64,000 bases of DNA from a virus: the IMG/VR virus record IMGVR_UViG_3300048913_000208. The stretch is one strand, 5' to 3'. The notes under the pieces were generated by a model. It made no database searches. It saw only the letters and a program-made list of their open reading frames with translations, and had not been told where the DNA came from. The position numbers were made by a program, and so were the translations under genes. Within the stretch, counting starts at the first letter, position 1. Every line of letters starts with the position of its first letter. Positions 8,942 through 23,706 of this stretch are shown piece by piece.

Positions 8942-10993
8942 ATGAGCAATGACGATCTGGTACTCGACGACGAACCAACCGGCGGCGACAAGTCGACCGG
9001 CGATCAAGGCCGCGAGAACCGCACCGAAAACCGTGACCGCGACCGTGATGAAGATCGTGGTGGCCGCGACCGTGACCGCAGCGACCGTGGCGGTAAGCGC
9101 GGGCGTCGTGGTGAAGAAGAAGACGAAGGCCGTGGCTTCAACATGGCGTCCCTCGGTCGTGCCATGAACCGCCCGCAAATGTCGGGTGTTTCTGACGCTG
9201 CCCTGGCTATCCTGATGGATACCTTCAAGGCTGCCAAGACCTTCGACAATCCAAACATCCACCCGGACATCCAGCAGTCGCGCTTCCAGGTTCTGCCGTA
9301 TACCGGCCGTAAAGGCTCGCGTGCTCTGCCGTCCCTGCTGGTCTGCCTGCCTCTGCCGAAACTGATCCCGGGCGGCGTAACTCTGGTCTACACCCTCTGC
9401 ATCGAGCAGCCGGGTTCCCAGACCACCCGCAACGCGGTATCTCGTGGCGACAACTACGAGGCGCTGGTGCTGCCGGAAGACCGCATGAACGACGCCTACA
9501 CCAAAGGCATTCGTGAAGAAGCGGCCGGCCTGGGTTGCAAACGTGTCGTGCTGGTCAACTCGCAGGTGATCCTGGCGGATCTGATCTCGGAAGTCTCCGA
9601 GAAAGAAAACAACCGCGTGGTTGCTCAGATCTTCGACAATGCCATCGATGCCCTGTGCGGTTACCGTCAGGAAATCCTGGACGCCAGCAATCCAGACGCA
9701 ATCAGCGAGTTCGCTCTGCGTCCGGAACTGATCGACAGCGGCGACCGTCTGGAAGCCACCATCGATTACAACCAGCCGTTCGGCCACGACACCTCCGGCC
9801 TGCCGATCCGTACCGATGCGTTGGTAACTTCGCACTACTCGGAACGGACCGACGATGACGAGGACGATCTGTACGAGCGTACTCCGATGGTCGAAGCCCG
9901 TTGCTCTCTGGATATGTTCATCCAGGACGACGACAACGATCGTGACCGCAACCGCCTGAGCCGTAAGCGTACCCGCCGCCGCGACGAAGATGACGAAACC
10001 GCCTTCATGCAGGGCGTTATCAACATCAACTCCATCGCCCCGGTCGACGGTTACCCGAACAGCCTGGGTCTGGTAGGTCTGGCGCTGGGCTCCGTGGCTC
10101 TGCTGTCGAACGACTACCGCTGGACCAACATGGCGCGTCCTCGCAAGACCGTCGGTGGCAAAGTCAAGCCGGTGTTCGATCTGAAGGATATCGCCCTGCT
10201 GGCGGATCTGGAAGATGATCAGCGTCGCGACGCAATGGACCTGGTCACCAGCAACATGAACGACGACGACTTCGCCGACTTCATCGACGCGTTCTTCAAG
10301 CGCGACGTGTCGTTCGGTATGGTCACCGCCAGTTCCGGCCAGAACGCCGCAATCCTGTCGATCTTCGAGAAGATCGCCACCGAGGAAAGCAAGTCGAAAG
10401 TCGACGCCCTGTGCACCAAGCTGTACGATGCCTGGGACGTTTTGACCGACGACCGCTTCCGCGAAGAATACCGCGAAATGAACGGCGGCAGCATGCCTCT
10501 GCCTGTTGAATCCGCGGGTACTCGCGTTCTGATCGGTACCTGGACCGACCCGGACACCTCGACTCTGCGTCCGCTGAGCGAGTGGAACGTACCGGCTGTG
10601 CTGACCCGTGCTGGTTCGAAAGATCTGGAGCTCGTTCGCGACTACCAGTTCACCTTCGAAGACAGCCGCCACACCGTCGACTACAACCTGTCCGAGCGTT
10701 ACCACATCCTGCGCAAGTTCGTGCCGGACATCCATGTCGTACAGACTGCCGAACAGCTGGTCTTCCAGAAGAACCTGCTGCCGGCTCTCGCGTCCGCCCT
10801 GGACAAGTCCCGCATGAGCCCGTACATCGCCGGTGGCGACACCCTGTCGGGTCGTCGTTCGGTGGGTAACCGTCTGTTCTCGTCGCAGGCAATCTCCGAA
10901 GGCGGCGTGAGCCGTCGTCGTGGTCGTGACCGCGATCGTGATCGCGAAGGTCGTGGTGGTCGCTTCTTCAGCGATGACTGGGATCGTCGTTAA
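8942..10993 (+). CDS. chmA: chimallin, major phage nuclear shell protein
   Basis: Segments QPFGHDTSGLPIRTDALVTS, VLIGTWTD, AEQLVFQKNLLPALASAL and GRRSVGN match my recollection of 201phi2-1 gp105; lies directly upstream of nvRNAP beta'; strong codon bias. Confidence 0.9.
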   Translation: MSNDDLVLDDEPTGGDKSTGDQGRENRTENRDRDRDEDRGGRDRDRSDRGGKRGRRGEEEDEGRGFNMASLGRAMNRPQMSGVSDAALAILMDTFKAAKTFDNPNIHPDIQQSRFQVLPYTGRKGSRALPSLLVCLPLPKLIPGGVTLVYTLCIEQPGSQTTRNAVSRGDNYEALVLPEDRMNDAYTKGIREEAAGLGCKRVVLVNSQVILADLISEVSEKENNRVVAQIFDNAIDALCGYRQEILDASNPDAISEFALRPELIDSGDRLEATIDYNQPFGHDTSGLPIRTDALVTSHYSERTDDDEDDLYERTPMVEARCSLDMFIQDDDNDRDRNRLSRKRTRRRDEDDETAFMQGVININSIAPVDGYPNSLGLVGLALGSVALLSNDYRWTNMARPRKTVGGKVKPVFDLKDIALLADLEDDQRRDAMDLVTSNMNDDDFADFIDAFFKRDVSFGMVTASSGQNAAILSIFEKIATEESKSKVDALCTKLYDAWDVLTDDRFREEYREMNGGSMPLPVESAGTRVLIGTWTDPDTSTLRPLSEWNVPAVLTRAGSKDLELVRDYQFTFEDSRHTVDYNLSERYHILRKFVPDIHVVQTAEQLVFQKNLLPALASALDKSRMSPYIAGGDTLSGRRSVGNRLFSSQAISEGGVSRRRGRDRDRDREGRGGRFFSDDWDRR

Positions 10994-11018
10994 TCGCTTC
11001 GCAGGCAAGTGAGATCTC

Positions 11019-11054
11019 GAGGGGTGGGTTTCCACCCCTCTTGATTTTTTCTTT
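11019..11054 (+). terminator. intrinsic terminator after chmA
   Basis: GAGGGGTGG-GTTT-CCACCCCTC followed by T-rich run. Confidence 0.8.
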
Positions 11055-11074
11055 ATTGTCTTTGCGGAGGTATT

Positions 11075-12598
11075 ATGGCGCAACTCTCTACCGCGGTTTA
11101 CGAAGACTTCACGGACCAGATCCTCGAAGATATACACGCACCCAGACAGCGGTATCCGGGTCGTAAGGGGATCTACCCGACGGTGGTTGACTTTGATGAC
11201 GTCTTCCGCCGGCTGGAGATTCGGCCCATTCTGGCAAACGAGCTCGATTTGAGCACTGAGCCTGGACGGGAGAAGTTCAACCGGTTGGTGTATAGCCGGT
11301 ACGATGGAGATGTGTTCTCGAATATCCCGGCGTGTCCTTGTCGACACACCAAAGGAACTCCGTTCATCGGAGAGAACTGTGAGGAATGTGGCTACCCAGT
11401 GGTGCCGCTGACTGAGCAGACAATCGAGCCCATCATCTGGGTATCCGCGCCTGAGCAGATTCCGGGCTTCATGAACTTGCAGATCTATCGGCTGCTCAAA
11501 GCTCGCTTTACCAAAAGCGGGTTCAGCGTGATCGATTACCTGCTTGATCCGAAGTACACGCCGCCCAAGTCGGATAGTCAGGAAGAACTGATCGTCAACA
11601 GACTGATCGAACGTCGAGGTCTGACGTACTTCCACGACAACTTCGACGACATCATGGAAGGTCTGTGTAAAAGCAGGCATTTCCTGAAGGCCGCTAAAGC
11701 GACCACCACGCAGCGATTCCTCAAGATCCACCGGGATATCGTGTGGTGTAAGCATCTCCCGTTCCCGTCCAAGATCGGCTTCATCGTCGAGAACGTGAAC
11801 GAGCAGACCTTCGTCGATCCAAAGATGGCCCCAGCACTTAGTGCCCTTATTTCCATCGCCAACGCCGGTAACACCACCAGCGGCGCGAAAGTGGTGGAAA
11901 GTCGTATTGCCCGATCGATGATGAAGTTGATCGAGTACTACTCAGGGTACGAAGGGTCGAAGATCTTCGACAAGAAAGGTGTCTACCGGAAGCTGGTATT
12001 CGGTACGAGCCCTCACTGGGTATGGCGGACTGTGATCACCCCGCAGTTCAAGCCGCACAAGTACAACTCTCTGTCGTGGCCGTGGGGAACGGCTGTGCTG
12101 ACGATGAAGACGCATTTGTCGTCCTACTTGTTGGCTGAGGATTACACGCCGAACGAAATCGCGTCCCTGATCTACGACAACGTCCTGCGAACGCACTACA
12201 AGCTCGAAGAGCTGTTCGACCGGATGATCGCTGAAAGCCCTGGCGGCCGTGGGATACCGACGAAGTTTACTCGGTTCCCATCGCTCATGCACGGCTCGAC
12301 GCAGTTGTACTGGATCGATGAGATCAAGCGCGACCCAACGCAGCTCAGCACCTCGCTGCCGCTGCTGACCACCGTGGCATTCAACGCCGACTTCGACGGC
12401 GACTACATGACTGGACAACTGACGTTGGACAACTGGACAACCCAGAAGTACCTGCGCATGGAATCCCACACCGGTCTGATGGACCTGAAGCACCCGTTCC
12501 GTGTAAGCAATCACGCGGCAATCCCAGCAACGGTACTGTCAACCGTGAACGCACGCTATGAGGAAGGGGACGCCCTTTCAGTAGCTATGGAGGACTGA
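11075..12598 (+). CDS. non-virion RNA polymerase beta' subunit, N-terminal part (phiKZ gp55-like)
   Basis: Catalytic FNADFDGD motif; N-terminal Zn site CPC...CEEC; GGAGG RBS. Confidence 0.93.
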   Translation: MAQLSTAVYEDFTDQILEDIHAPRQRYPGRKGIYPTVVDFDDVFRRLEIRPILANELDLSTEPGREKFNRLVYSRYDGDVFSNIPACPCRHTKGTPFIGENCEECGYPVVPLTEQTIEPIIWVSAPEQIPGFMNLQIYRLLKARFTKSGFSVIDYLLDPKYTPPKSDSQEELIVNRLIERRGLTYFHDNFDDIMEGLCKSRHFLKAAKATTTQRFLKIHRDIVWCKHLPFPSKIGFIVENVNEQTFVDPKMAPALSALISIANAGNTTSGAKVVESRIARSMMKLIEYYSGYEGSKIFDKKGVYRKLVFGTSPHWVWRTVITPQFKPHKYNSLSWPWGTAVLTMKTHLSSYLLAEDYTPNEIASLIYDNVLRTHYKLEELFDRMIAESPGGRGIPTKFTRFPSLMHGSTQLYWIDEIKRDPTQLSTSLPLLTTVAFNADFDGDYMTGQLTLDNWTTQKYLRMESHTGLMDLKHPFRVSNHAAIPATVLSTVNARYEEGDALSVAMED

Positions 12599-13224
12599 TG
12601 GCAATTGTGTTTTGTTTGGATGATGACGCAGATCTGATCCGGACGAGCTCCCATGGGATGATGTCACGGGAGGATCTGCGATTCTTTCGAGACCGGATGG
12701 ATACAGCGATACGCTCCGCAGGTGCGGGCGCTAGCGAATATCTGCGTTCGGCCTACGACAATCTGGCGAGCTTCAACCTGGACAGGCTGCGGGATCGCGT
12801 GGAGGCGATGCGCGACCGTTTCACCAAACGTTGGGACGAAGACCGGGTTTGCCGTCTTCCGTCAATCTCGGACTTCCAGAACGCCAAGCCGTCGAATCGC
12901 CGGTACATCATGGCAATTCCGCGACTGCGGGCGCTCTGGCAGGCTGGTCGTTGCGATGGCTTCGACGGTCTGTACGACGACGAGGAACCGGGTGCTATTG
13001 GCCGGAACCACACGCCGTACCGGGAAATGATGAACGGTTCCTACGTCGAGGAGAATGAGGACGAGGATACCTTCGTTACTTATCTCGGCGTGGAAGACGA
13101 CGAGGGTGAACAACCGCTGACTGGCGCGCGACGTCAGGATCTGCGGGTAAACATGCGCACCATGGAAGAGATCCTCAACCGCGGTACGCAAGACCCGACC
13201 AGCGTGAAACGCAAGACCCTGTAA
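12598..13224 (+). CDS. conserved phiKZ-like protein (gp59/Imp3-like by synteny)
   Basis: Coupled to beta' gene (TGATG); assignment from gene order only. Confidence 0.55.
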   Translation: MAIVFCLDDDADLIRTSSHGMMSREDLRFFRDRMDTAIRSAGAGASEYLRSAYDNLASFNLDRLRDRVEAMRDRFTKRWDEDRVCRLPSISDFQNAKPSNRRYIMAIPRLRALWQAGRCDGFDGLYDDEEPGAIGRNHTPYREMMNGSYVEENEDEDTFVTYLGVEDDEGEQPLTGARRQDLRVNMRTMEEILNRGTQDPTSVKRKTL

Positions 13225-13232
13225 ACCGACAG

Positions 13233-13264
13233 CATAGGGCCCGGCCTCGCGCCGGGCTTTATGT
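13233..13264 (+). terminator. hairpin terminator
   Basis: GCCCGGC-CTCGC-GCCGGGC then TTTATG. Confidence 0.6.
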
Positions 13265-13289
13265 CGTTAACAATCCATTGGAGGTAAGA

Positions 13290-13796
13290 ATGAGCAAACA
13301 ACAACAGATTCATCTGGCCGTTACAGTCAGTTACTCTGGCGATCCCGTTGATGGTAAACGCGTCGCCGCTGTCGTGGAGAATGCTCTCGAGCACTGTCGG
13401 CAGAAAGGAATGCTCAGCGAACCTGAGTGGGAAGAGACCTCCTGCGACGCAGTGCGGTTGAATCTGGTCGGGGAAGGCGCAGATATCGACACCGATTGCT
13501 GGAAATTGTTCTTTCCAGAAGCTGCCGTTAACAGTCCGTCCGATGGAATGGTGAGCGCACACCAACCTGAAAACCCACAAACCGAATTCGTCAAGCTTCT
13601 CCAAAGTGCTCGAGAGCGCGATACGGAGCGTAAGCATACGACGGAAGATCGCGCCTGGACTGAAGGGTACGGTACGGCGGCCGAAACCATCTTCGATACC
13701 ATCCACAACCACGGCTACGTGATTCTGGACAAGGACGGTAACCGCGTCAATCGAGTCGAACACAGTTTGGCTCTGGGCCTGTGGCATAAACGTTAG
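13290..13796 (+). CDS. hypothetical protein
   Basis: GGAGG RBS before ATG 13290. Confidence 0.75.
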   Translation: MSKQQQIHLAVTVSYSGDPVDGKRVAAVVENALEHCRQKGMLSEPEWEETSCDAVRLNLVGEGADIDTDCWKLFFPEAAVNSPSDGMVSAHQPENPQTEFVKLLQSARERDTERKHTTEDRAWTEGYGTAAETIFDTIHNHGYVILDKDGNRVNRVEHSLALGLWHKR

Positions 13797-13806
13797 GAGA
13801 ACGGCA

Positions 13807-14340
13807 TTGAATCGCAAACAACTGGAAGCTGTATTATTGCTGGCTCGCATTGAACCCATCAGCATTCATGAAATCCCCAACGAATACCATCGTGAGGCTT
13901 CCAATCCCTGGTTCTATGTTTTGACCAAGGACGGGATCTTGAAGATCGGTCTTCGTAGTCGCGTTGTCGAACTCGATTACAGCCTAACCTGTAAACGCGG
14001 CGAGCTGACCGACAGCGACGTGACCAAGTCGAATACCATGGTCCACGCCTGGACTGACGGTGATCTGGTGAACTACCTGATCAACTGGGGTCGCTTACCC
14101 TGGAGCGAAGACTTCTCGAGAAAGGTCGGTGAAGGCAAGACCATGATCGGCGAGTATTTCGATACCTACGCCGGCCCGCAACTCAACAGCGATCCAGTCG
14201 TTAAAGCCGTTCTTGAAAACATGAACGAACACGACTCGGACCTGACCAAGATGATCGACCCACTCACCAAGGAAGAAACCATGGTGCTCTGGACCGGTCG
14301 CAACCAGATCAGCTTCACGTTTCCAAAGACCCCTGCCTGA
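13807..14340 (+). CDS. hypothetical protein
   Basis: AGGAG RBS before TTG; ends at a terminator. Confidence 0.75.
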   Translation: MNRKQLEAVLLLARIEPISIHEIPNEYHREASNPWFYVLTKDGILKIGLRSRVVELDYSLTCKRGELTDSDVTKSNTMVHAWTDGDLVNYLINWGRLPWSEDFSRKVGEGKTMIGEYFDTYAGPQLNSDPVVKAVLENMNEHDSDLTKMIDPLTKEETMVLWTGRNQISFTFPKTPA

Positions 14341-14347
14341 CGGCATA

Positions 14348-14394
14348 GTGTGCGACCCTACGGGGTCGCTACACGACTTTCTTTTTTTTTGTTT
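14348..14394 (+). terminator. intrinsic terminator
   Basis: GCGACCC-TACG-GGGTCGC stem and long T-tract. Confidence 0.85.
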
Positions 14395-14426
14395 CCAATA
14401 GGATGTTAGCTATCTGGAGAATTCAC

Positions 14427-14852
14427 ATGGGCGTCAGTGTCGTCACATTGGGCATCCAAGGCGTCACCCGGGATGTCGATAAGGCCATCGACTATTTGAT
14501 GTGCTGTTTCTTTTATTCGAAGTACAGTCAATCCACACTCTACCGTGGACGGGTTACTTCACTCACCAAGATCATCCAGATGAACGCCACGGATGCTACT
14601 GGTTTGCGTGTAGAGATCGAAAACCAACTCGGTACATTCTTGCGGCGCACATTCGCCAGTGCAACTGTTGTCGTTCGTGAAGAAAGCGACAGTGCCGATC
14701 CTGGTATTAAGTTACAGATCAATGCAATGGTAAGCACAGGAGACGACATTAACGCTTCGTCCACCAGCGTGGGTTATTCACTCCTCACGAAGGACTCGAA
14801 ACTCAAGCGTCTGATCAATCTCTCCAACGGCACCACCCTTATTAGCAACTAA
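14427..14852 (+). CDS. conserved phiKZ-like protein (possible gp25-like baseplate fold)
   Basis: GGAG RBS; size and alpha/beta pattern compatible with gp25-like proteins; fold not verified. Confidence 0.5.
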   Translation: MGVSVVTLGIQGVTRDVDKAIDYLMCCFFYSKYSQSTLYRGRVTSLTKIIQMNATDATGLRVEIENQLGTFLRRTFASATVVVREESDSADPGIKLQINAMVSTGDDINASSTSVGYSLLTKDSKLKRLINLSNGTTLISN

Positions 14853-14866
14853 GCAAGGTAGACATC

Positions 14867-15349
14867 ATGTCCGCAGCAGCTCCGCAACAAGCCGAACAAG
14901 CCCAAGCTCAAATCGAGCGTCCGTTCCCGACTACCCACGAGGAACTGCACTTGATCGTGGCTGAAGCCGTCGGCCGCATCCTGTCGTTCCCGGAAAACAT
15001 CCAGCAGCTGGCCATGTCGGTTGCCAGCGCTCAGGCCGGCGCCCTGCAACAAGTCAACATCATCAACCAGCGTATGGAAGCTCACCCACAACTGGTTCGC
15101 GTCGAATACCCGGGCGCTGCCCGTGCGACCGTCGTGGCCGCCGCTGAAGGCTTCGACGTGGTCCTGGAAGAGCGTGACGGCACCGACGGCTGGAAACCGC
15201 TGGAGCGTCCGGACTACGTGATCGCCGGCGCCAAGAAACTGGTTCTGTCTCAGGTCACCCACGATGGCGACGTGTGGTTCATCACCACCACCGCCGAAGT
15301 CCACAAGTTCCAGGACTCGATGATCGGTCAGAACGTCACCCAAGGCTAA
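14867..15349 (+). CDS. hypothetical protein, likely highly expressed
   Basis: AAGG RBS; strong C-ending codon bias; followed by a hairpin. Confidence 0.8.
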   Translation: MSAAAPQQAEQAQAQIERPFPTTHEELHLIVAEAVGRILSFPENIQQLAMSVASAQAGALQQVNIINQRMEAHPQLVRVEYPGAARATVVAAAEGFDVVLEERDGTDGWKPLERPDYVIAGAKKLVLSQVTHDGDVWFITTTAEVHKFQDSMIGQNVTQG

Positions 15350-15356
15350 GTGCTGC

Positions 15357-15401
15357 GTATACGACGGCCGCAAGGCCGTCGTATACTGGAGGTTTTCTTT
15401 T
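15357..15401 (+). terminator. hairpin terminator
   Basis: 13-bp perfect stem GTATACGACGGCC-GCAA-GGCCGTCGTATAC, then T-rich run. Confidence 0.75.
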
Positions 15402-16097
15402 ATGATTCGCAAAGATGTGGCAATGGGCGAGAACCCTTTCGTTCCGCCAAAGAACGTAAAGCCGATGGCTCCTACCGCCTACCAACGGTATCTTCAGGAA
15501 AGCCTGTCTTCCCTTGACAGCGCTGCGGACGAAATCAACCGCATGACGGCAGCTCGTATCCGCCGAGTTCCTGAACCGTACTTTGCTAAACATTTGCTAC
15601 ATGTTGTGCGAGCATGGGTCACTAAAGCCGATCCTGCTCCAGAAATTGGTCATTGGCTCAATGTAGCCGACGGCCTGCACAACCCGATCAACGTTGTGGA
15701 TGCTAACGACAACATCCTGTTCGTCGTACCTCCAGCGTTCGTCGATATCCAGCTGAACACCACCGACCACAAGGCCGCCCGTAAGAAGTCGATGCTCCAC
15801 GCCATTAACTTGCAAGGCGTGTATGCGGACAACACCAACCTACGGGAATTCTGGGGTATCGAGGAAAGTCTCGTCCAGGACAACATGGCAAAGCCAGCTG
15901 AACACAGCATGGCCCATGCCCTGACCCAATTGGTCAGGATGTACCACTACTACAAACTCCCCTTGGTAGAAATCCTCGGGGAAGAAGGCGCTGCCCAGCT
16001 GGCCCCGTTACTCGAAGCAGAATCGGGGGTGGCAAAACAGACCACTACCGATAACGGCAATGACGATGACGATGAACCAGGCGCTTTCGAATACTAA
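15402..16097 (+). CDS. conserved phiKZ-like protein with acidic C-terminus
   Basis: GGAGG RBS; ends DDDDEPGAFEY; precedes SbcD-like gene. Confidence 0.7.
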   Translation: MIRKDVAMGENPFVPPKNVKPMAPTAYQRYLQESLSSLDSAADEINRMTAARIRRVPEPYFAKHLLHVVRAWVTKADPAPEIGHWLNVADGLHNPINVVDANDNILFVVPPAFVDIQLNTTDHKAARKKSMLHAINLQGVYADNTNLREFWGIEESLVQDNMAKPAEHSMAHALTQLVRMYHYYKLPLVEILGEEGAAQLAPLLEAESGVAKQTTTDNGNDDDDEPGAFEY

Positions 16098-17238
16098 TCC
16101 AGTCCGGCAGGTGGAGTGGGTGGATTACATCAATCCTACTCCTGCCCCCGGCACGTTTCACGTCGTTATCCTGAGTGACGTCCATTTAGGACACGGTCGG
16201 GTTCCGACCCGCAAGATGATTGAAGACCTGGAGTTGTTTCTCAACCCTGACCGTCTGAAACTCATCGACTTCATCATCATCACAGGGGATCTGTTTGACC
16301 AACGTCTGCCGCACGACAGTACCGAAGCGTATCTGATCAGTCGGTGGATGGAACGTCTCCTGCGAGCTTGTAAGCAGTACAACGTCGCTATCCGTATCCT
16401 GGAAGGCACTCCGAGTCATGACCAGCGGCAATCGCAGTGGATGGTCACGTACAACGAGATGACTTGCCTTGGTGTGGATCTGCGGTACTACCCGGAACTT
16501 TCGATTGACGAACTGTTCCCTGGCGGTCCAATGGTCCTTTGGGTGCCGGATGAGGTCAACCACGACGCGAACCGTACTTGGCTTGAAGTCCAAGCCCTGA
16601 TGCGAGACAGAGCGCTGGATAAGGTTGACTTCGGATTCATGCACGGCTTCTTCCGGTTCCAAGCGCCGGTAGAGACAGTCTCGAGTCATGATGAAGACAG
16701 GTATCAAGGCATTGTCCGCCACCTGATCGTCAACGGCCACGACCATACGCACAAGGTCTTAGGGATCATTCGTATCCCAGGATCACCAGACCGGCATAAA
16801 CACCGGCAGGAGGAAGCCAAAGGCCACCTCCAGTTCTCGTTCTCGCCAGAGAAAGGCGTGCACGACGAGCAGTTCATCGTTAACCACCGCGCGGTCATCT
16901 TCACGACGTTAGACGTAGTCGGGAAGTCGTATCCTGAGGTTGAGAAGCTGCTGTCTTCTCTGGAGGACAGTCCTGACGGTAGTAACTACCGTCTACGACT
17001 TAGTCGTTCGGATGAGACCTATTCCAACTTCTCCCGCTTGAAGACCCGCTTCCCTCATTTCAAACTCACCCACGACACCGTTGAGGCTAAGAAGATTACC
17101 GGCGCCTACGAGTCTCCCGTAGAACGTCCTATCCTGACCTCCATCCGTTCTGACACGTTGTCAGGCCTGGTGGTACCAAGGTTGAGTAATCTGAGCCCTG
17201 AGGCGCTGAAGTTCGCTGAGCAAGAGCTAAACAGTTAA
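16060..17238 (+). CDS. SbcD/Mre11-family metallophosphoesterase nuclease (phiKZ gp65-like)
   Basis: Motifs SDVHLG, GDLFD, GTPSHD, MHG and GHDH. Confidence 0.88.
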   Translation: MTMTMNQALSNTNPVRQVEWVDYINPTPAPGTFHVVILSDVHLGHGRVPTRKMIEDLELFLNPDRLKLIDFIIITGDLFDQRLPHDSTEAYLISRWMERLLRACKQYNVAIRILEGTPSHDQRQSQWMVTYNEMTCLGVDLRYYPELSIDELFPGGPMVLWVPDEVNHDANRTWLEVQALMRDRALDKVDFGFMHGFFRFQAPVETVSSHDEDRYQGIVRHLIVNGHDHTHKVLGIIRIPGSPDRHKHRQEEAKGHLQFSFSPEKGVHDEQFIVNHRAVIFTTLDVVGKSYPEVEKLLSSLEDSPDGSNYRLRLSRSDETYSNFSRLKTRFPHFKLTHDTVEAKKITGAYESPVERPILTSIRSDTLSGLVVPRLSNLSPEALKFAEQELNS

Positions 17239-17247
17239 GGAGCTACC

Positions 17248-18105
17248 ATGTCAGTCGACTCTATATCCAGAGACGCACTGTCGCAACGGACGATGGGGAA
17301 CTTTCCCATCTCCATCGCTACAAGTCAGGCCATCGAGTCTTTCATCGGTAAGCTCCCAGAAGCTCCTACTGCTGACCCGGAGATTCGTCGCCGGGATTTG
17401 CTGATGGTCAATATCCGCACTCTGATCCGAAACATCTTCGGGTCGATGGATAAAGACCAGCGAGCGAAGGTCGACGAGTACAACGTAGCGGAATCGTTGA
17501 TTGCAGAGATGCGGACTATCGAAGGTATCATCACCGAAGAGTCAGACGGTGTGTGCCAAACGATGTTCTACTACTGCTCGTACGACGACTTCCTGCGTAA
17601 GTTCACCAAGTCGATCCCCAAGACGGCGAACACCATCCTCCAGAAGCAGAACGCCGCTTCGGAGATGTCGGTGATCAAATACATCTTGGGTGAGATGAAG
17701 GATCAGGCGCCTGTTGAGAAGTACACCACGGACTTCCCTAACATAGACGCCGATACAGCGATTCTGACGCATTATCCGATCGACCTGCTGCAACGGTATA
17801 AGTTCAAGTCGCTCGTGCTCCTAGAGTCCCACACAGGCGCTATAAAGCCGCCTATGATGTGGAACACCAAGCTGCATGAAGGACGGGATTTGGAAATCAT
17901 CCCGTTTGACAGAATGTCGTTGCAGATCTTTGGCGATAACGTGCTCTTTGTTCCGATGGCGGTAAAGATCCGTCAGCGAGTGTACAAGGTGGCTACGAAG
18001 AACGCCTGGACTCCAGCAACCACGAAGGACTTTGTGATCTACTCGATCGAGCAGAACCGCGACCCTGCGTTGGAAGTGTTGGTCAAAGACTTGTACCGCA
18101 AGTAA
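17248..18105 (+). CDS. conserved phiKZ-like protein (gp66-like position; possible PIN/5'-nuclease-like fold)
   Basis: AAGGAG RBS; LLMVNIRTLIRN beta-alpha start; function unverified. Confidence 0.55.
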   Translation: MSVDSISRDALSQRTMGNFPISIATSQAIESFIGKLPEAPTADPEIRRRDLLMVNIRTLIRNIFGSMDKDQRAKVDEYNVAESLIAEMRTIEGIITEESDGVCQTMFYYCSYDDFLRKFTKSIPKTANTILQKQNAASEMSVIKYILGEMKDQAPVEKYTTDFPNIDADTAILTHYPIDLLQRYKFKSLVLLESHTGAIKPPMMWNTKLHEGRDLEIIPFDRMSLQIFGDNVLFVPMAVKIRQRVYKVATKNAWTPATTKDFVIYSIEQNRDPALEVLVKDLYRK

Positions 18106-18162
18106 GTCGTTACACAACTCTTAGATAAGATGTTCACCGATTAACCCCCAGAGGTAGGCACC

Positions 18163-18978
18163 ATGAGCCAAGCTCCACGCAAACCGCCACGCGACTATGA
18201 CGTAACCGACGACAAGGCTTTGATGCTTTGGGGTCCGCCTATCCGGCCCGACGGTTTCCCAATTCGCGGCAAGTTCTCCTTCGACGAAAACGGCCCGATC
18301 CTGACCGTCGACTCCGGCACCAAGACCGACAAAGGCTACAAAGTCGATGTCGAGATGCCGATCATGCTCGCCAACATGCTCACCGTTCTGAACTTGATCC
18401 GTCGGGTAGCCAGCCATCAAGGCGGTGGTCTGGCGTTTGAAACCGATATCTACGGTCACCCGTGGGTCTACGATCGCGGTCAGGGCAAGAACGTCAAGTC
18501 CAAGGAAAAGCTGCACGTCGGCCGCATGCTCATCGAGAAGCGTGCAGATGGTCAGGTTTCCCTGTCGGTGACTGCTCGCAACAAGCCAGAAATGCGCTTC
18601 GACTTCAAGCAGAACGACTACATGGCTATTACCCAAAACGGCCAGCCGGTGTCTGTCGACATCAGTTCGTCCGAAGCGGCACTGGCCTGGGCCGAGATGT
18701 GGAAAACCATTCTGGTCAATAAAGTCGAGCGCGACTGGAAAGAACCGGAATACAAGAAGGAATGGCGCCTCAAGCAACAAGCCGAACGCGCTCAGCGCAA
18801 TAACGGCGGTGGTGGCGGTGGTGGCGGCCAGTACCAGAACCGCAACAATGGTGGCGGAGGTGGTGGAGGCGGTCAACAGCAATACCAGCAGCAAGGGCAA
18901 GGACAATCTCAAGCTCAAGCTCCAGCGGCACCTGGCCACGATAGCTTCGATTCGTTCGACGAAGACCTGCCTTACTGA
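18163..18978 (+). CDS. conserved protein with G/Q/N linker and SSB-like acidic tail (phiKZ gp67/Imp6-like position)
   Basis: GAGG RBS; tail GGGG..QQQ..DSFDSFDEDLPY. Confidence 0.65.
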   Translation: MSQAPRKPPRDYDVTDDKALMLWGPPIRPDGFPIRGKFSFDENGPILTVDSGTKTDKGYKVDVEMPIMLANMLTVLNLIRRVASHQGGGLAFETDIYGHPWVYDRGQGKNVKSKEKLHVGRMLIEKRADGQVSLSVTARNKPEMRFDFKQNDYMAITQNGQPVSVDISSSEAALAWAEMWKTILVNKVERDWKEPEYKKEWRLKQQAERAQRNNGGGGGGGGQYQNRNNGGGGGGGGQQQYQQQGQGQSQAQAPAAPGHDSFDSFDEDLPY

Positions 18979-18992
18979 TAGGTTACCTCGAT

Positions 18993-19020
18993 CCTCTACA
19001 TGTCCATGGGCATGTAGAGG
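18993..19020. terminator. hairpin without T-tract
   Basis: 12-bp stem CCTCTACATGTC-CATG-GGCATGTAGAGG. Confidence 0.5.
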
Positions 19021-19091
19021 ACAGTCCTGTATGCCGCTCACGGTTAAAACTTACTGTGCCGCCATATATAATGTCCAAAGATTTACAACGA

Positions 19092-19099
19092 TACATTAT
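19092..19099 (+). promoter_or_regulatory. candidate early promoter core TACATTAT
   Basis: Same motif as upstream of chmA, in an AT-rich intergenic gap. Confidence 0.5.
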
Positions 19100-19132
19100 C
19101 AACTCGAACGAACCCATACATCGGAGTACTTG

Positions 19133-20797
19133 ATGGAACTTGTCATCACGGGTTTTACGAAGAGCAGTTTTTCTCTCGTGTCGATTCGACATGGGACAGA
19201 AGAAGAGCTGACATTCTCAGCCAAAGGTTATTCTACCGCAAAACCCGGTGCAATGAAGGAAGACGATACTTCTGAAACCGGTGTCCGCGTAGAACTGTTC
19301 GAGGAGATCAACGAGTTCCTGCAGAAGTTGACTAAAGATCAGCAGGACACGATGTACGAAATTTATTATCGAATCGATGAAATCTTCAGCCAGTTCGGGA
19401 CAACCGAAATGTCAGCTGAAGGCGTCAGCAGTTCGAAACTTCTGGCGGAGTTGCTGTCTGAGCAAGTCGCCAGGATTTACGAGATTGTCAAGTTCGAGGA
19501 TCTGCGAGAGTTTGTGGTGTTCAGCCGCAAGTTCAAGATTCCAGCTGACTTAATGGACAGTTACGCCACAGCCGACAAGGTTACGCCGCGCTACATGCAG
19601 CGGACCTATCTGCGTAACGAGTACATCGATCTCGTGGCCGTTGCACTCGGCCTGCGTCTGATGATCCCGGTCTGGGGCCGATACCTGCCAATCTCTGGTA
19701 AGGAAGATCGGATCTCCATGAAGGAGCTCAATGCTTATAAGCTCCTGGCCAAGTCGTCTATCTATCGAGCACAAGGGATAATCTCCCCAGACTCTCGTTG
19801 GTTTGGCGATGTGTTGGATGATGAAGAACCGAACCTCTCGGTCTTCGCACGGTTGGAGACGTATCTTGCGGCAAACCTGAAGGAAGAAGAGTACGAACTC
19901 GCGGTGTCGTTCAAACACCTGTCCAGCGATGAAGTGCCTGAATACCTGATGGCGCAAGGCCTGATCCGGAAAGCGGCAGTAGCCCCACTGTCGCCGGAGC
20001 ATGACAAACAGCACATGATGAAGATTATCTTCAACTACTGCTGCTCCAACAACAACCGTAAACCTTCCGTCTTCGGCAGCAACATCAAACCGAAGGTGGA
20101 CGCAGAAACTGCGCTGGATGATAACAGCTCGGTGCTCTGCGTGTACAAAATGAAAGAGCAGGTTTCGGCTGGCGATCTCATGATCAGTCAGAAGTACGTC
20201 ATGCGGTACATCAATGCCGCGCAGACGATCGAACCGAACCTCAGCAAAGAACGGATCGAGATGTGCGTCAGTAGCACCATGGCTATCGACCGATTCATCC
20301 CGACAGAAGCCCAGACGACCCTTTGCATCTGGATCATGTCAACCGTTATTGCTGGTTGTATCGTTGAAGTCTACGACCGTAAAGAACCGCTTCTGGTTTC
20401 CATGGGTATCGCTCAGGCGGTACTGTGGGAGTGGGGTCTTCCGCAGTTGGCGATTCTGCTGACTGCCAAGAAGATCGAATTGGCCGATGGCGAGATGTTG
20501 ATGGGAGTTACTCGATTGCCCGTCAGTAACGCCAACATCCAAACGCTTCAAGCCATCAGTCCGTACGACTACACCGATAGCAAAGGCTCTGACGTAACCC
20601 TGGCTGTCAACACGGCCGTCCGCGGCATCGACATGGTGGCCAACGAGTTCATCAAGAACGAGTGGGAACCACGGTGCTGCAAAGAACTGGCTGCGAGCTA
20701 CTATCGCAGCGACAAGACCAAACGAATTGAAGTCTCGCCCGACTTCCGCGACCAGTGCGCGCAGTTGCTGATCAAGCTCAACGATTTCAGCCGCTAA
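19133..20797 (+). CDS. non-virion RNAP promoter-specificity (sigma-like) subunit, phiKZ gp68-like
   Basis: 554 aa from ATG 19133 (GGAG RBS); assigned from synteny and size. Confidence 0.68.
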   Translation: MELVITGFTKSSFSLVSIRHGTEEELTFSAKGYSTAKPGAMKEDDTSETGVRVELFEEINEFLQKLTKDQQDTMYEIYYRIDEIFSQFGTTEMSAEGVSSSKLLAELLSEQVARIYEIVKFEDLREFVVFSRKFKIPADLMDSYATADKVTPRYMQRTYLRNEYIDLVAVALGLRLMIPVWGRYLPISGKEDRISMKELNAYKLLAKSSIYRAQGIISPDSRWFGDVLDDEEPNLSVFARLETYLAANLKEEEYELAVSFKHLSSDEVPEYLMAQGLIRKAAVAPLSPEHDKQHMMKIIFNYCCSNNNRKPSVFGSNIKPKVDAETALDDNSSVLCVYKMKEQVSAGDLMISQKYVMRYINAAQTIEPNLSKERIEMCVSSTMAIDRFIPTEAQTTLCIWIMSTVIAGCIVEVYDRKEPLLVSMGIAQAVLWEWGLPQLAILLTAKKIELADGEMLMGVTRLPVSNANIQTLQAISPYDYTDSKGSDVTLAVNTAVRGIDMVANEFIKNEWEPRCCKELAASYYRSDKTKRIEVSPDFRDQCAQLLIKLNDFSR

Positions 20798-20827
20798 TTC
20801 GATACATCGACCCAAGGGAGAGTCAAC

Positions 20828-22408
20828 GTGGAACTTATTAAACTGGTCTTTACCCAACTGGCCCCACAGTTGGATATTCCGATCACCCCGCATGCGTTGG
20901 ACCTGCGTAAGCACATGGTCGACGAGTTCGCCAAAGCGACCAACGAAGGCACCAACGTGTCACCGTTCCGTCTGGCCAAAACCGCAGCCGGTCTGTTCGT
21001 ACCGAACACCGCCCGTGAGCGGCGGATCAAATCTCACGTTGCGAACGGTTGGGATGCCGACCGCTTGGCTTTCGCCATGGTGATTGCGGTCAACAACCGT
21101 AACCACAGCAAGACGTACCACTACATCGTCGGCACCACTGACGAGGACATGCATGCCGGTACCGATTCGAAGATCGTCTTCGACAAGAAGATGAAGCTGT
21201 ACTTCGACAAGGTGACTCGCGTTCACATGAACGAGTCGCGTCACCGCGACCGTAACGTGTGGGTACCGAAGATCCAGGCGCATGACCAGATCCTCAACCG
21301 TGCTTCGTTGACCGGTTACGATCGCGACAACATCGGTCTGCGGGATCGGCCAGTCAGTCTGCGTCCGACGGATATCTTCCGTCGTCGTACTGGCGCTACG
21401 CAGTTTGCCAAGCACTTCAGCGGTGATGAGAACGTTACCAACATGTGTGGTGCGTTTACCAGTCAGCTGAAAGCATCGACGCTGGATAACAACAGCACCT
21501 CGATGTATCTGTCGCGGACTCTGTCGGCGTACATGGCTTCTGCAGCCGATCCTGAGCAAGCACACCACTACGACGAGGGTCAGCACGATACGCTGAACCA
21601 TGCCCATGATCGTGTCGAGGAGAACGATCTGGAACTCGATCCGTGGATCGAACAGATGAAGGAGCAGTACCGCATCCTGGATGACGGCTACATCACCTTC
21701 GGTCAGCTTCAGCGGATGAACCCAGACTACGACTGGGACAAGATCATCTTTGGCCGCACTGGGCGTGGTGGTCGCGGTATCAGTCTGGCAAACCAGGCGG
21801 GCTGGAACGGTACCGACAACGAAACTGTAGCGGCTCGCATCATCGCTCAGTCGTTGCCGAACCTGATGATTCAGTCGATGTACAACGAGGTAGAGCACTT
21901 GGTTCTCGACAGTACTGTCCGTAGCGGTCAGAACGAAGTCGAGATCTCCAAGGTCTGGCCATTCGTAGACGGTATCTCGACTCAAGGCAGCTGGCCTTAT
22001 TTCGAGAGCGCTTGCAGCAACATCCTGTTGCGCGAAGCGACCTGCGGTGGTCGATTCCAAGTGACTGCCCGTATCGATGCGAACCTGGACCGGTTGATCA
22101 AGATCTGGATTCGTATCGACCATGGCGAAGAAGCCTACTTCGAGTTCCCGGCATGCATGTCCGGCGCAGTTGCGCCTACGCTGGAAACCGACAACAAGGC
22201 ATTCGACTCCTTGGCCAAAGGTATCGTCGGCCTGGCAGCAGAACTGTCCGCCCGTCGTCTGGATGCAATGCCTACCCACACGGACTCGCCGAAGATCAGC
22301 TTGTCCTCCGACATGCGCAGCGCACGCGATGATCGGACCCGAGATCGAGACGACCGCAGCGACGACCGTCGCAGTGATCGCCGCACCCGTTCGCAGCGTG
22401 ACTGGTAA
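20828..22408 (+). CDS. picA: phage nucleus protein import factor PicA/Imp1 (phiKZ gp69-like)
   Basis: 526 aa, directly after gp68-like gene in the conserved block; GGGAG RBS; RD-rich tail; assignment mainly by synteny. Confidence 0.68.
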   Translation: MELIKLVFTQLAPQLDIPITPHALDLRKHMVDEFAKATNEGTNVSPFRLAKTAAGLFVPNTARERRIKSHVANGWDADRLAFAMVIAVNNRNHSKTYHYIVGTTDEDMHAGTDSKIVFDKKMKLYFDKVTRVHMNESRHRDRNVWVPKIQAHDQILNRASLTGYDRDNIGLRDRPVSLRPTDIFRRRTGATQFAKHFSGDENVTNMCGAFTSQLKASTLDNNSTSMYLSRTLSAYMASAADPEQAHHYDEGQHDTLNHAHDRVEENDLELDPWIEQMKEQYRILDDGYITFGQLQRMNPDYDWDKIIFGRTGRGGRGISLANQAGWNGTDNETVAARIIAQSLPNLMIQSMYNEVEHLVLDSTVRSGQNEVEISKVWPFVDGISTQGSWPYFESACSNILLREATCGGRFQVTARIDANLDRLIKIWIRIDHGEEAYFEFPACMSGAVAPTLETDNKAFDSLAKGIVGLAAELSARRLDAMPTHTDSPKISLSSDMRSARDDRTRDRDDRSDDRRSDRRTRSQRDW

Positions 22409-22446
22409 GTCACGCTACACCCATTAGGAAAATCACGAGGTAACAC

Positions 22447-23706
22447 ATGTCCTCCAAACTGGATACCAAACTGGAGTTTGACCGCAGTCTGTTGCTCGAT
22501 GTCGGCATTTACGACAAGGACGATAACGGTTTCATGCTGGTCGATCTGGCCGGTTCCCCTACTCCGGTAACCATCGGCGGTAAGCGCCTGGTCCTGACTC
22601 TGAAGAACCTGCTGCGCGAAGGCGACTGGGAAGAGCGCATTGCGTTCCACCCAGAATGCGAACAGATCACCCAGGGTCCATCCCCAATCCTCAACGCGCT
22701 GAAGAACTACATCGTCGAGCGCACCAAAGAAACCTTCAAGTCGATCATCGACGCACTGGGCGAACTGGCATCCGACACCAAGCGTCAGAAGCCGCTGTCG
22801 GCCAAGGCCGCACAATACCTGTCGTTGTTCAACGGTCAGGAGTTCGATGCCACCACGCTGAAGACCCTGCGCGCTGTGCTCAAGGCCACCAGCAATGTTC
22901 CGGAGAAACGGTTCATCAACCTGTTCCTCCAGAACGGCGGTAAAGACGGAGCCTTGCGTACCTGCCAGGTATCGTTCCCATTCATGGAGAACGACGACGC
23001 ATCCGACCCAACCACCTTCTTCGGCGTGAAGATGCCGCGCAAGACCAAGGACAAGGCGCTGATCATCGCTCTGCTCGAGTACGTCCTGGGCAATGAAGAA
23101 GAACGCAACACCCTGTACACGCAGAGCGTCAAGGATGGCGATGCGCCGTACCTGAACTCCCTGCTGAAGTCCTTCGACGCACTGGCTGAGCGGCAGAACA
23201 AGCTGATCGAAATCCACGGCAAGGCCTGCCAAACCCTGACCCCCCTGAAGTACGGTCTGGAATGGGCGCACCACCTGCCGAAGTTCGATGAGTTCGTCCG
23301 TACCTACGGCGTCTCTGTACCTGCGCTGCCTGGCAACGTTGGTGTGGACGATGACGAGATCGAAGAAGAAAGCAGTAACGCTTCCTCGGTTTACGAATCG
23401 GACGCTGACGACGTCGGTGCTGGTGAGCGTCGTGAAAGAAGCGAGAAGAAAGACGTCGACCTGCCGTGGGATGACGATGACAGCGATCGCCGTGAATCGC
23501 GTCGTTCCAGCGGTAAGTCCATGGGAGACCTGCTGAAAGGCAAGAGCTCCCGTAGCGATGACCGCCGCGACCGTGATCGGGATCGTGACCGCGACGACCG
23601 TCGGGATGATCGTCGTGACGACCGCCGTTCGGGCAATCCGTTCCGTCGTGACAGCCGTGACAGCCGTGATGACCGTCGCGGTAGCAGCAGCCGCCGCGAC
23701 TGGTAA
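22447..23706 (+). CDS. conserved nucleus-block protein (phiKZ gp70-like) with acidic and RD-repeat tail
   Basis: GAGG RBS; between picA and nvRNAP beta. Confidence 0.65.
   Translation: MSSKLDTKLEFDRSLLLDVGIYDKDDNGFMLVDLAGSPTPVTIGGKRLVLTLKNLLREGDWEERIAFHPECEQITQGPSPILNALKNYIVERTKETFKSIIDALGELASDTKRQKPLSAKAAQYLSLFNGQEFDATTLKTLRAVLKATSNVPEKRFINLFLQNGGKDGALRTCQVSFPFMENDDASDPTTFFGVKMPRKTKDKALIIALLEYVLGNEEERNTLYTQSVKDGDAPYLNSLLKSFDALAERQNKLIEIHGKACQTLTPLKYGLEWAHHLPKFDEFVRTYGVSVPALPGNVGVDDDEIEEESSNASSVYESDADDVGAGERRERSEKKDVDLPWDDDDSDRRESRRSSGKSMGDLLKGKSSRSDDRRDRDRDRDRDDRRDDRRDDRRSGNPFRRDSRDSRDDRRGSSSRRDW

Follow-up and report, generated by a model that had tools for sequence, protein, structure and literature searches.

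The chimallin (ChmA) of phages 201phi2-1 and Goslar is made up of a disordered N tail, an N-terminal segment (NTS), a core with one disordered loop, a first C-terminal segment (CTS1), a linker and an aromatic second segment (CTS2) at its end, and its disordered elements are rich in Gln, Thr, Pro and Gly (PMC9365700). In 201phi2-1, the N tail (residues 1-47) is disordered and dispensable for assembly and incorporation, and the linker between CTS1 and CTS2 (residues 612-621) is not resolved (PMC9365700). PicA, also called Imp1 (phiKZ gp69, PhiPA3 gp63), is an essential and selective import factor whose shell-peripheral puncta and requirement for selective import are known only for phiKZ, PhiPA3 and 201phi2-1 (PMC11087766; 10.1101/2024.03.27.586873). 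The product of the neighbouring gene, phiKZ gp70 (PhiPA3 gp64), joins an N-terminal domain of about 300 residues to a disordered tail of about 100; it is conserved and shell-localised, without known function (PMC10643120). A 2025 review lists among the open questions of the field the way in which the machinery for selective import is held on the chimallin lattice (PMC12908238). Here we analyse a 64-kb stretch of viral DNA (IMG/VR record IMGVR_UViG_3300048913_000208, henceforth the window, taken at its full length), in which ChmA, PicA and the gp70 orthologue all carry disordered segments rich in Arg and Asp (RD). Across chimalliviruses the chemistry of these segments changes in step in the three proteins, and PicA and gp70 tend to end in the same residue.

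The window proteins keep the layout of their relatives and differ from them in the chemistry of the disordered parts. ChmA occupies the same syntenic position and appears to have the same succession of elements, with putative NTS-like and CTS2-like motifs, but its disordered elements are Arg/Asp polyampholytes. PicA has the orthologous core, the gene neighbourhood and a disordered C-terminal tail with a hydrophobic last residue; this tail is RD-rich and ends in Trp, whereas the phiKZ-like one is rich in Gln, Pro and Asn and ends in Leu. The gp70 orthologue likewise combines domain and tail, the latter consisting largely of Gln, Met, Pro, Asn and Gly in phiKZ and of RD in the window. No paper connecting tails of mixed charge or low complexity with chimallin or with the phage nucleus turned up in full-text literature searches, and the key papers on PicA/Imp1, ChmB, chimallin structure and diversity make no mention of disordered tails or C-terminal motifs in PicA and gp70.

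Tail chemistry changes in step across chimalliviruses

The comparison was based on 23 GenBank phages and 80 IMG/VR loci, the latter anchored on the SbcD-like gp65 gene in the middle of the block, which together gave 77 non-redundant phages. One homologue list in which RD tails were near-universal was discounted, because recruitment by shared five-residue words favours RD-rich sequences, and a panel from low-complexity-filtered tblastn was used instead, together with the gp65-anchored loci. The gp70 tail was of the RD type in 28 of the 77 phages, the other 49 having uncharged tails of Gln, Asn, Gly, Met and Pro, and its charge was bimodal in the tabulated loci, with no intermediates (0.39-0.76 versus 0-0.2). 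In phiKZ, 201phi2-1, RAY and SPN3US the same segments are present and uncharged (Q/N/G/M/P/S/L-rich); in PCH45, RSL2 and pPa_SNUABM_DT01 (henceforth DT01) they are Arg/Asp-rich.

An earlier interpretation of this locus (the sequence-only reading) had taken the RD tails as an independent acquisition of this lineage. They are not peculiar to it, since the 28 phages with RD-type gp70/ChmA include PCH45, SPLA10, Moabite, RSL2 and Xoo-sp14. Its statement that the ChmA termini of 201phi2-1 are Q/T/G-rich is correct. Nor do the tails vary independently across orthologues, an outcome which that reading had set against itself in advance. They co-vary with the charge of the gp70 tail at a Spearman rho of 0.82-0.88 over the 77 taxa: 0.83 for the ChmA N tail, 0.88 for the ChmA C tail, 0.86 for the ChmA internal loop (69 phages) and 0.82 for the PicA tail. 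The disordered tail of ChmC, encoded in the same block and serving as an internal control, gave -0.15 to -0.20; it is G/Q-rich with an acidic tip, uncharged in both types of phage, and stands outside the RD switch. A fully RD PicA tail like that of the window was found in five of the 28 RD-type phages and in none of the 49 others. Within the metagenomic clade of the window, RD tails are kept in all three proteins on every contig that could be paired.

A tree was built from the beta' subunit of the non-virion RNA polymerase (nvRNAP) and gp68; its deep nodes are weakly supported. The best tree places six changes of the RD state, at Xoo-sp14, the PCH45/Moabite clade, the clade of the window and DT01, locus L081, the RSL2 clade and Vibrio phage pVp-JHP1101, and at each of them charge goes up in all ChmA segments and in the PicA tail. 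By this reconstruction the RD state has switched three to six times. The folded parts change too. The ChmA core has a net charge of -0.049 in RD-type phages and -0.024 in uncharged ones, with charged fractions of 0.253 and 0.206; for the PicA core these fractions are 0.253 and 0.172. The RNA polymerase subunits shift by just +0.01 to +0.02, so the switch affects the whole shell surface and not the tails alone. The RD-type tails of ChmA (C30, +0.125) and gp70 (C80, +0.06) are net positive.

PicA and gp70 often share their last residue

The extreme ends of PicA and gp70 are alike within a phage and different between clades. Both proteins end in RDW in the window, in GFGNI in locus L100 and in LGLL in PhiPA3, while the respective ends are ..KF and ..RF in the DT01 clade and NQGV and GGGV in locus L053. 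In 45 of the 77 phages the two proteins have an identical last residue, where 10.2 such cases would be expected. When the tree was collapsed into 41 clades, each with a single PicA end residue, the gp70 end agreed with it in 17 (4.3 expected, p ~5e-5); the residues on which they agree are L, I, V, F, W, Y and R. ChmC controls were null. The clade-collapsed test of residue identity replaced a binary aromatic-versus-aliphatic test on independent pairs, for which the ends provide three transitions only.

RD tracts of the window

All the RD and Arg/Glu strings quoted by the sequence-only reading are present in the genes that it named, and so is the block of about 50 RD residues in the gp70-like protein, which lies at aa 366-419 inside a 110-aa tail ending in SRRDW. 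Its view of the three proteins as ChmA, PicA and gp70 orthologues was borne out by phrog, tblastn and PDB-profile matches, and that of their association with the nucleus agrees with the model phages, where all three are shell-associated (PMC10643120, PMC11087766). In ChmA, the N-tail tract lies upstream of an NTS-like motif, GFNMASLGRA (aa 65-75), corresponds to the N tail of 201phi2-1 ChmA and is kept in composition, not in sequence, in 12 homologues down to 38% identity. An internal loop adds a fourth RD segment that had been overlooked; it aligns to the Q/P/T-rich loop 307-319 of 201phi2-1, which is missing from the cryo-EM map. Because the profile alignment puts CTS1 at residues ~636-653, just N-terminal to them, the R/D/G-rich tract at aa 658-674 would be the linker between CTS1 and CTS2, and FFSDDW the CTS2-like end, whose aromatic patch ([FWL]F...[WY]) is kept in 13 of 13 clade members. 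CTS1 was assigned from the alignment to 201phi2-1, and the NTS-like and CTS2-like motifs from position and clade conservation only. With these assignments, RD chemistry fills exactly the predicted disordered parts of ChmA and not its docking segments. The sequence-only reading noted that terminal segments of ChmA mediate lattice assembly; the RD tracts are not these segments but correspond to the dispensable N tail, a loop invisible by cryo-EM and the CTS1-CTS2 linker (PMC9365700).

In each of nine PicA homologues (37-100% identity), a charged linker leads up to a terminal Trp. The tail starts with a conserved ISLSSD, which also precedes the charged linker in the clade of the window and in Vibrio phage pVp-JHP1101. 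For gp70, an AlphaFold2 model from a 67-sequence alignment gave predicted local distance difference test (pLDDT) values above 90 for the N-domain (aa 1 to ~305) and below 50 for the tail. Comparison of the model with PDB by Foldseek gave nothing at E<=0.001, and the best match by VIA-align, a designed helical protein with a Z score of 5.8, was within noise, so that the N-domain has no convincing solved relative in these searches. A short amphipathic motif, SMGDLL, lies inside the gp70 tail and has relatives in phiKZ (SIQDLL), DT01 (SLDDFL) and RTH11 (SVDDFL). This S-h-x-D-h-L pattern occurs in only about 10 of 23 phages, some with RD-type and some with uncharged tails, and may be a second linear motif of the tail.

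The RD tails are near-neutral, well-mixed strong polyampholytes, with charged fractions of 0.59-0.72 (0.64-0.72 in the gp70 tail), a net charge that ranges from -0.09 to +0.14 per residue and kappa of ~0.03-0.2 (0.03-0.11 in the gp70 tail). Arg makes up about 99% of their basic residues (R/(R+K) ~0.99). They have the composition of Arg-enriched mixed-charge domains: disordered, high in charged fraction, with Arg supplying the positive charges and acidic residues well mixed among them.

To delimit these tracts we scanned six-frame, stop-to-stop open reading frames (ORFs) of at least 60 aa for 30-aa stretches that contain nine or more basic and nine or more acidic residues. Among the 428 ORFs of the window only the ChmA, PicA and gp70 genes passed, in keeping with the earlier statement that no other protein read there has such tails and with the view that this low-complexity chemistry is specific to the three. 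Over 24 loci (4448 ORFs), the same threshold retrieved 10 gp70 orthologues, four ChmA, the PicA of the window and two unrelated matches. An origin of the tracts by slippage or from microsatellites was rejected, Tandem Repeats Finder giving just 2-4.5 copies of weak 6-12-bp units, and Arg and Asp codons are mixed in the tracts as in the background. Recent gene conversion between the tails was also discarded as unlikely, the longest shared DNA matches being no more than 23 bp.

Proposed flexible tethers with a common anchor

The explanation that we favour, and which we regard as evenly poised between right and wrong, is that PicA and gp70 use their tails as flexible tethers, which end in a common anchor at the shell and whose chemistry is co-selected with greater acidity of the ChmA surface. 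The short anchors at the two C termini would fit the same receptor pocket at the shell, most likely on ChmA, and would act there like ChmA's own linker plus CTS2. Tether chemistry would be co-selected because all segments would share one microenvironment, a disordered coat on the ChmA lattice. In RD-type phages the folded ChmA core has about double the net negative charge, and the C tail of ChmA and the tail of gp70 have a net positive one; Arg-rich tails would therefore rest on this acidic surface and cross-link it, and Asp would preserve their solubility and prevent adhesion to DNA and RNA.

In bacterial single-stranded DNA-binding proteins (SSB), the C-terminal tip docks to a pocket of the partner. 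There, too, a short conserved peptide at the C terminus is held out to the partner on a flexible linker of low complexity, and the adjoining ChmC has such a tip; the SSB-type tip is acidic and invariant, whereas PicA and gp70 end in hydrophobic or aromatic residues that vary between clades. The co-evolution of the end residues of PicA and gp70 is better matched by tethers with an anchor than by a condensate, a pore barrier or RNA handling. PhiPA3 gp63 and gp64 are shell-localised and co-purify with ChmB (PMC10643120), and Imp1 with a C-terminal tag is inactive (10.1101/2024.03.27.586873).

Several observations count against this explanation. In E. coli, phiKZ gp70 was not co-purified with Imp1, and the tails need not touch (10.1101/2024.03.27.586873); as gp70 does not bind Imp1 directly, a shared third-party receptor is favoured over binding between tails. 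Deletion of the ChmA N tail of 201phi2-1 left incorporation unaffected (PMC9365700). The last residue of ChmA matches the gp70 end in 12 of 55 cases (5.6 expected) and the PicA end in 8 of 55 (4.5 expected), a weak correspondence that comes mostly from one clade; mimicry of CTS2 is therefore unproven and the receptor could be another protein. Just three switches between RD and uncharged states lie on well-supported branches, too few for significance alone, and in a strict independent-pair test the ChmA C tail was concordant in about three of three pairs and never opposite, a number that cannot reach significance. The specificity scan covered about a quarter of the genome of the window phage. 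A complex prediction for ChmA 66-655 with the gp70 tail (340-419) scored 0.30, the mark being 0.32, and carries no weight either way.

Condensation, as proposed by the sequence-only reading, offers another account, which seems unlikely to us. RD segments of ChmA, gp70 and PicA would self-associate as a condensate-like mesh on or in the shell and provide a selective barrier or a concentrator of import factors, an analogue of the Arg-enriched mixed-charge domains of nuclear speckles or of FG-nucleoporins, with uncharged Q/N/M/G as an alternative cohesive chemistry. Pure Arg/Asp dipeptide repeats do condense in a length-dependent manner in eukaryotic cells (10.1101/771592), all disordered shell segments co-vary like with like, 8-10% aromatic residues are kept in both tail types and PicA forms puncta at the shell (PMC11087766). 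With the speckle domains the RD tracts have in common well-mixed or alternating Arg and Asp, Arg rather than Lys, disorder, and attachment to folded domains of a nucleus-related compartment; this is analogy without homology, and the tracts of the window are much shorter, near neutral and borne on a two-dimensional protein lattice (10.1101/771592; PMC9324279). General polymer theory, however, describes well-mixed near-neutral polyampholytes in this range of kappa as expanded and weakly cohesive, the tracts are short (18-55 residues), and bulk phase behaviour leaves the co-evolving terminal anchor residue unexplained.

It is less probable still that the tails have no specific function and that mutational bias, the supply of codons or tRNAs, or conditions in the host cytoplasm pull the disordered regions of one genome towards the same composition, their co-variation being a by-product. 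The folded cores of all five tested proteins are slightly more charged and Arg-biased in RD-type phages, GC content is weakly associated with the gp70 tail charge (rho 0.25), and robustly independent switches are few. But the ChmC tail next to them is disordered and G/Q/N-rich in both types, and GC content was rejected as the driver, both tail types spanning the fully overlapping range of 0.33-0.58. A bimodal tail charge without intermediates, mixed codons with no slippage array, a core shift that in PicA and ChmA is four to eight times that of the nvRNAP beta' subunit (gp55 orthologue) and the absence of RD windows from about 4400 other ORFs also speak against drift. The last reading, that Arg-rich shell tails bind mRNA (for export or ribosome hand-off) or DNA (for packaging) like eukaryotic RS/RD/RG domains, could draw on the predominance of Arg, on a gene block that also encodes the RNA-binding ChmC and nvRNAP subunits and on the need of mRNA to cross the shell (PMC12908238), but is very improbable when in about 64% of chimalliviruses these proteins bear uncharged tails, unable to bind nucleic acid electrostatically, when net charge is near zero and when the dedicated RNA-binding protein ChmC lies outside the switch.

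Returning to the tethers, we advance a broader version only tentatively. The shell might wear a disordered coat, formed by the N tail, loop and C-linker of ChmA and the gp70 and PicA tails, whose chemistry and clade-specific end residue would make up a co-evolving compatibility code that decides which accessory proteins plug into a given shell. Such a code could be at once an assembly address and an incompatibility barrier between co-infecting nucleus-forming phages, with gp70 possibly a hitherto unrecognised tethered component of import or export. If the tails are docking tethers, this would explain how accessory proteins join a lattice that is itself held by swapped tails, might account for the inactivity of C-terminally tagged Imp1 and might set the compatibility between phages; it would also provide an example from a bacterial virus of functional mixed-charge disordered regions. 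For the attachment of the import machinery as well as for gp70, the handles gained are the terminal residue that PicA and gp70 share and tails whose chemistry changes together with that of all disordered parts of ChmA. Related pairs in opposite states exist in nature: Vibrio phage pVp-JHP1101 and SPN3US, RSL2 and FLC9, PCH45 and phiKZ.

Locus, gene identities and neighbouring genes

The window holds the conserved chimallivirus early block, in the gene order of phiKZ gp54-gp74 and of 22 further phages. The closest cultured phage has just 36% identity in nvRNAP beta'. ChmA comes after head-protein and DNA polymerase genes and directly before nvRNAP beta' (gp55), PicA stands between the gp68 and gp70 orthologues, and the latter between PicA and the nvRNAP beta genes.

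The window ChmA matches phrog_4795 across 559 residues (E 9e-25) and scores 25.9 bits against Pfam PF25677, just below the cut-off of 27 bits; the domain is carried by 12 of 12 metagenomic homologues. A profile of these 13 sequences reaches the PDB chimallins 7sqq, 8igg and 8fne at E 1e-4. By tblastn, ChmA had no match at 1e-5 in 50,697 phage records, and a pattern scan of IMG/VR for ChmA gave zero confirmed cases. Profile matches and synteny identify it as a very divergent chimallin. PicA matches PHIKZ069 by tblastn at 3e-13 over 84% of the query, and the gp70 orthologue matches PHIKZ070 at 6e-19, PhiPA3 064 at 1e-17 and also 201phi2-1 gp126.

Features of the ChmA, PicA, gp70 and adjoining genes in the window (positions in the 64-kb stretch; aa, amino acid positions)
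Feature	Position	Strand	Evidence or property
ChmA (chimallin) orthologue, 683 aa	8942..10993	+	phrog_4795, chimallin profile, synteny with phiKZ gp54/gp55
ChmA N-tail RD/RE tract, aa 24-63	9011..9130	+	charged fraction 0.72, net charge ~0
ChmA internal RD-rich loop, aa 329-353	9926..10000	+	charged fraction 0.76
ChmA CTS1-like segment, aa ~633-655, GDTLSGRRSVGNRLFSS...	10838..10906	+	profile alignment to 201phi2-1 CTS1; conserved in clade alignment
ChmA putative CTS1-CTS2 linker, R/D/G-rich, aa 658-674	10913..10963	+	position relative to aligned CTS1; net positive
ChmA CTS2-like aromatic end, FFSDDWDRR	10964..10990	+	follows R/D/G linker; position and clade conservation
ChmC/Imp6 (gp67) orthologue, internal control for disordered tail	18163..18978	+	phrog_3284
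gp68-like nvRNAP subunit ORF, as listed	18809-20797	+	GTG start
PicA/Imp1 orthologue, 526 aa	20828..22408	+	phrog_3141 (E 2e-47), PHIKZ069, synteny
PicA C-terminal RD tail, aa 486-526, ends ...RSQRDW	22283..22405	+	charged fraction 0.59
ISLSSD at start of PicA tail	22283-22310	+	
gp70 (phiKZ) / gp64 (PhiPA3) orthologue, 419 aa	22447..23706	+	phrog_3520 (E 6e-55), tblastn, synteny
gp70 disordered C-terminal tail, aa 310-419; RD-dense block aa 366-419; ends ...RRDW	23374..23703	+	AlphaFold2 pLDDT <50
SMGDLL motif in gp70 tail	23518-23535	+	
Antisense ORF, 982 aa	8807-11755	-	unsupported

The ChmC tail consists of a G/Q-rich linker and the acidic tip DSFDSFDEDLPY. Most phages of the 23-member panel have an SSB-like tip of the form [DE]-[DE]-D-h-P-aromatic, with about 13 clear cases and divergent forms in the others. 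With its GTG start as listed, the gp68-like nvRNAP subunit ORF runs over the last 170 nt of the ChmC gene in a different frame; compared with its orthologues in length, it probably begins instead at an internal Met near 19124. The long antisense ORF over chmA and the start of the nvRNAP gene, which is picked by longest-ORF gene calling, is a high-GC artefact. In Vibrio phage phiKT1019 (MZ622713.1, L018:5374-7443), the chimallin orthologue is labelled 'diguanylate cyclase/phosphodiesterase' in GenBank and the nvRNAP beta' beside it 'putative DNA helicase'; from synteny and hidden Markov model matches, both labels are probably misannotations.

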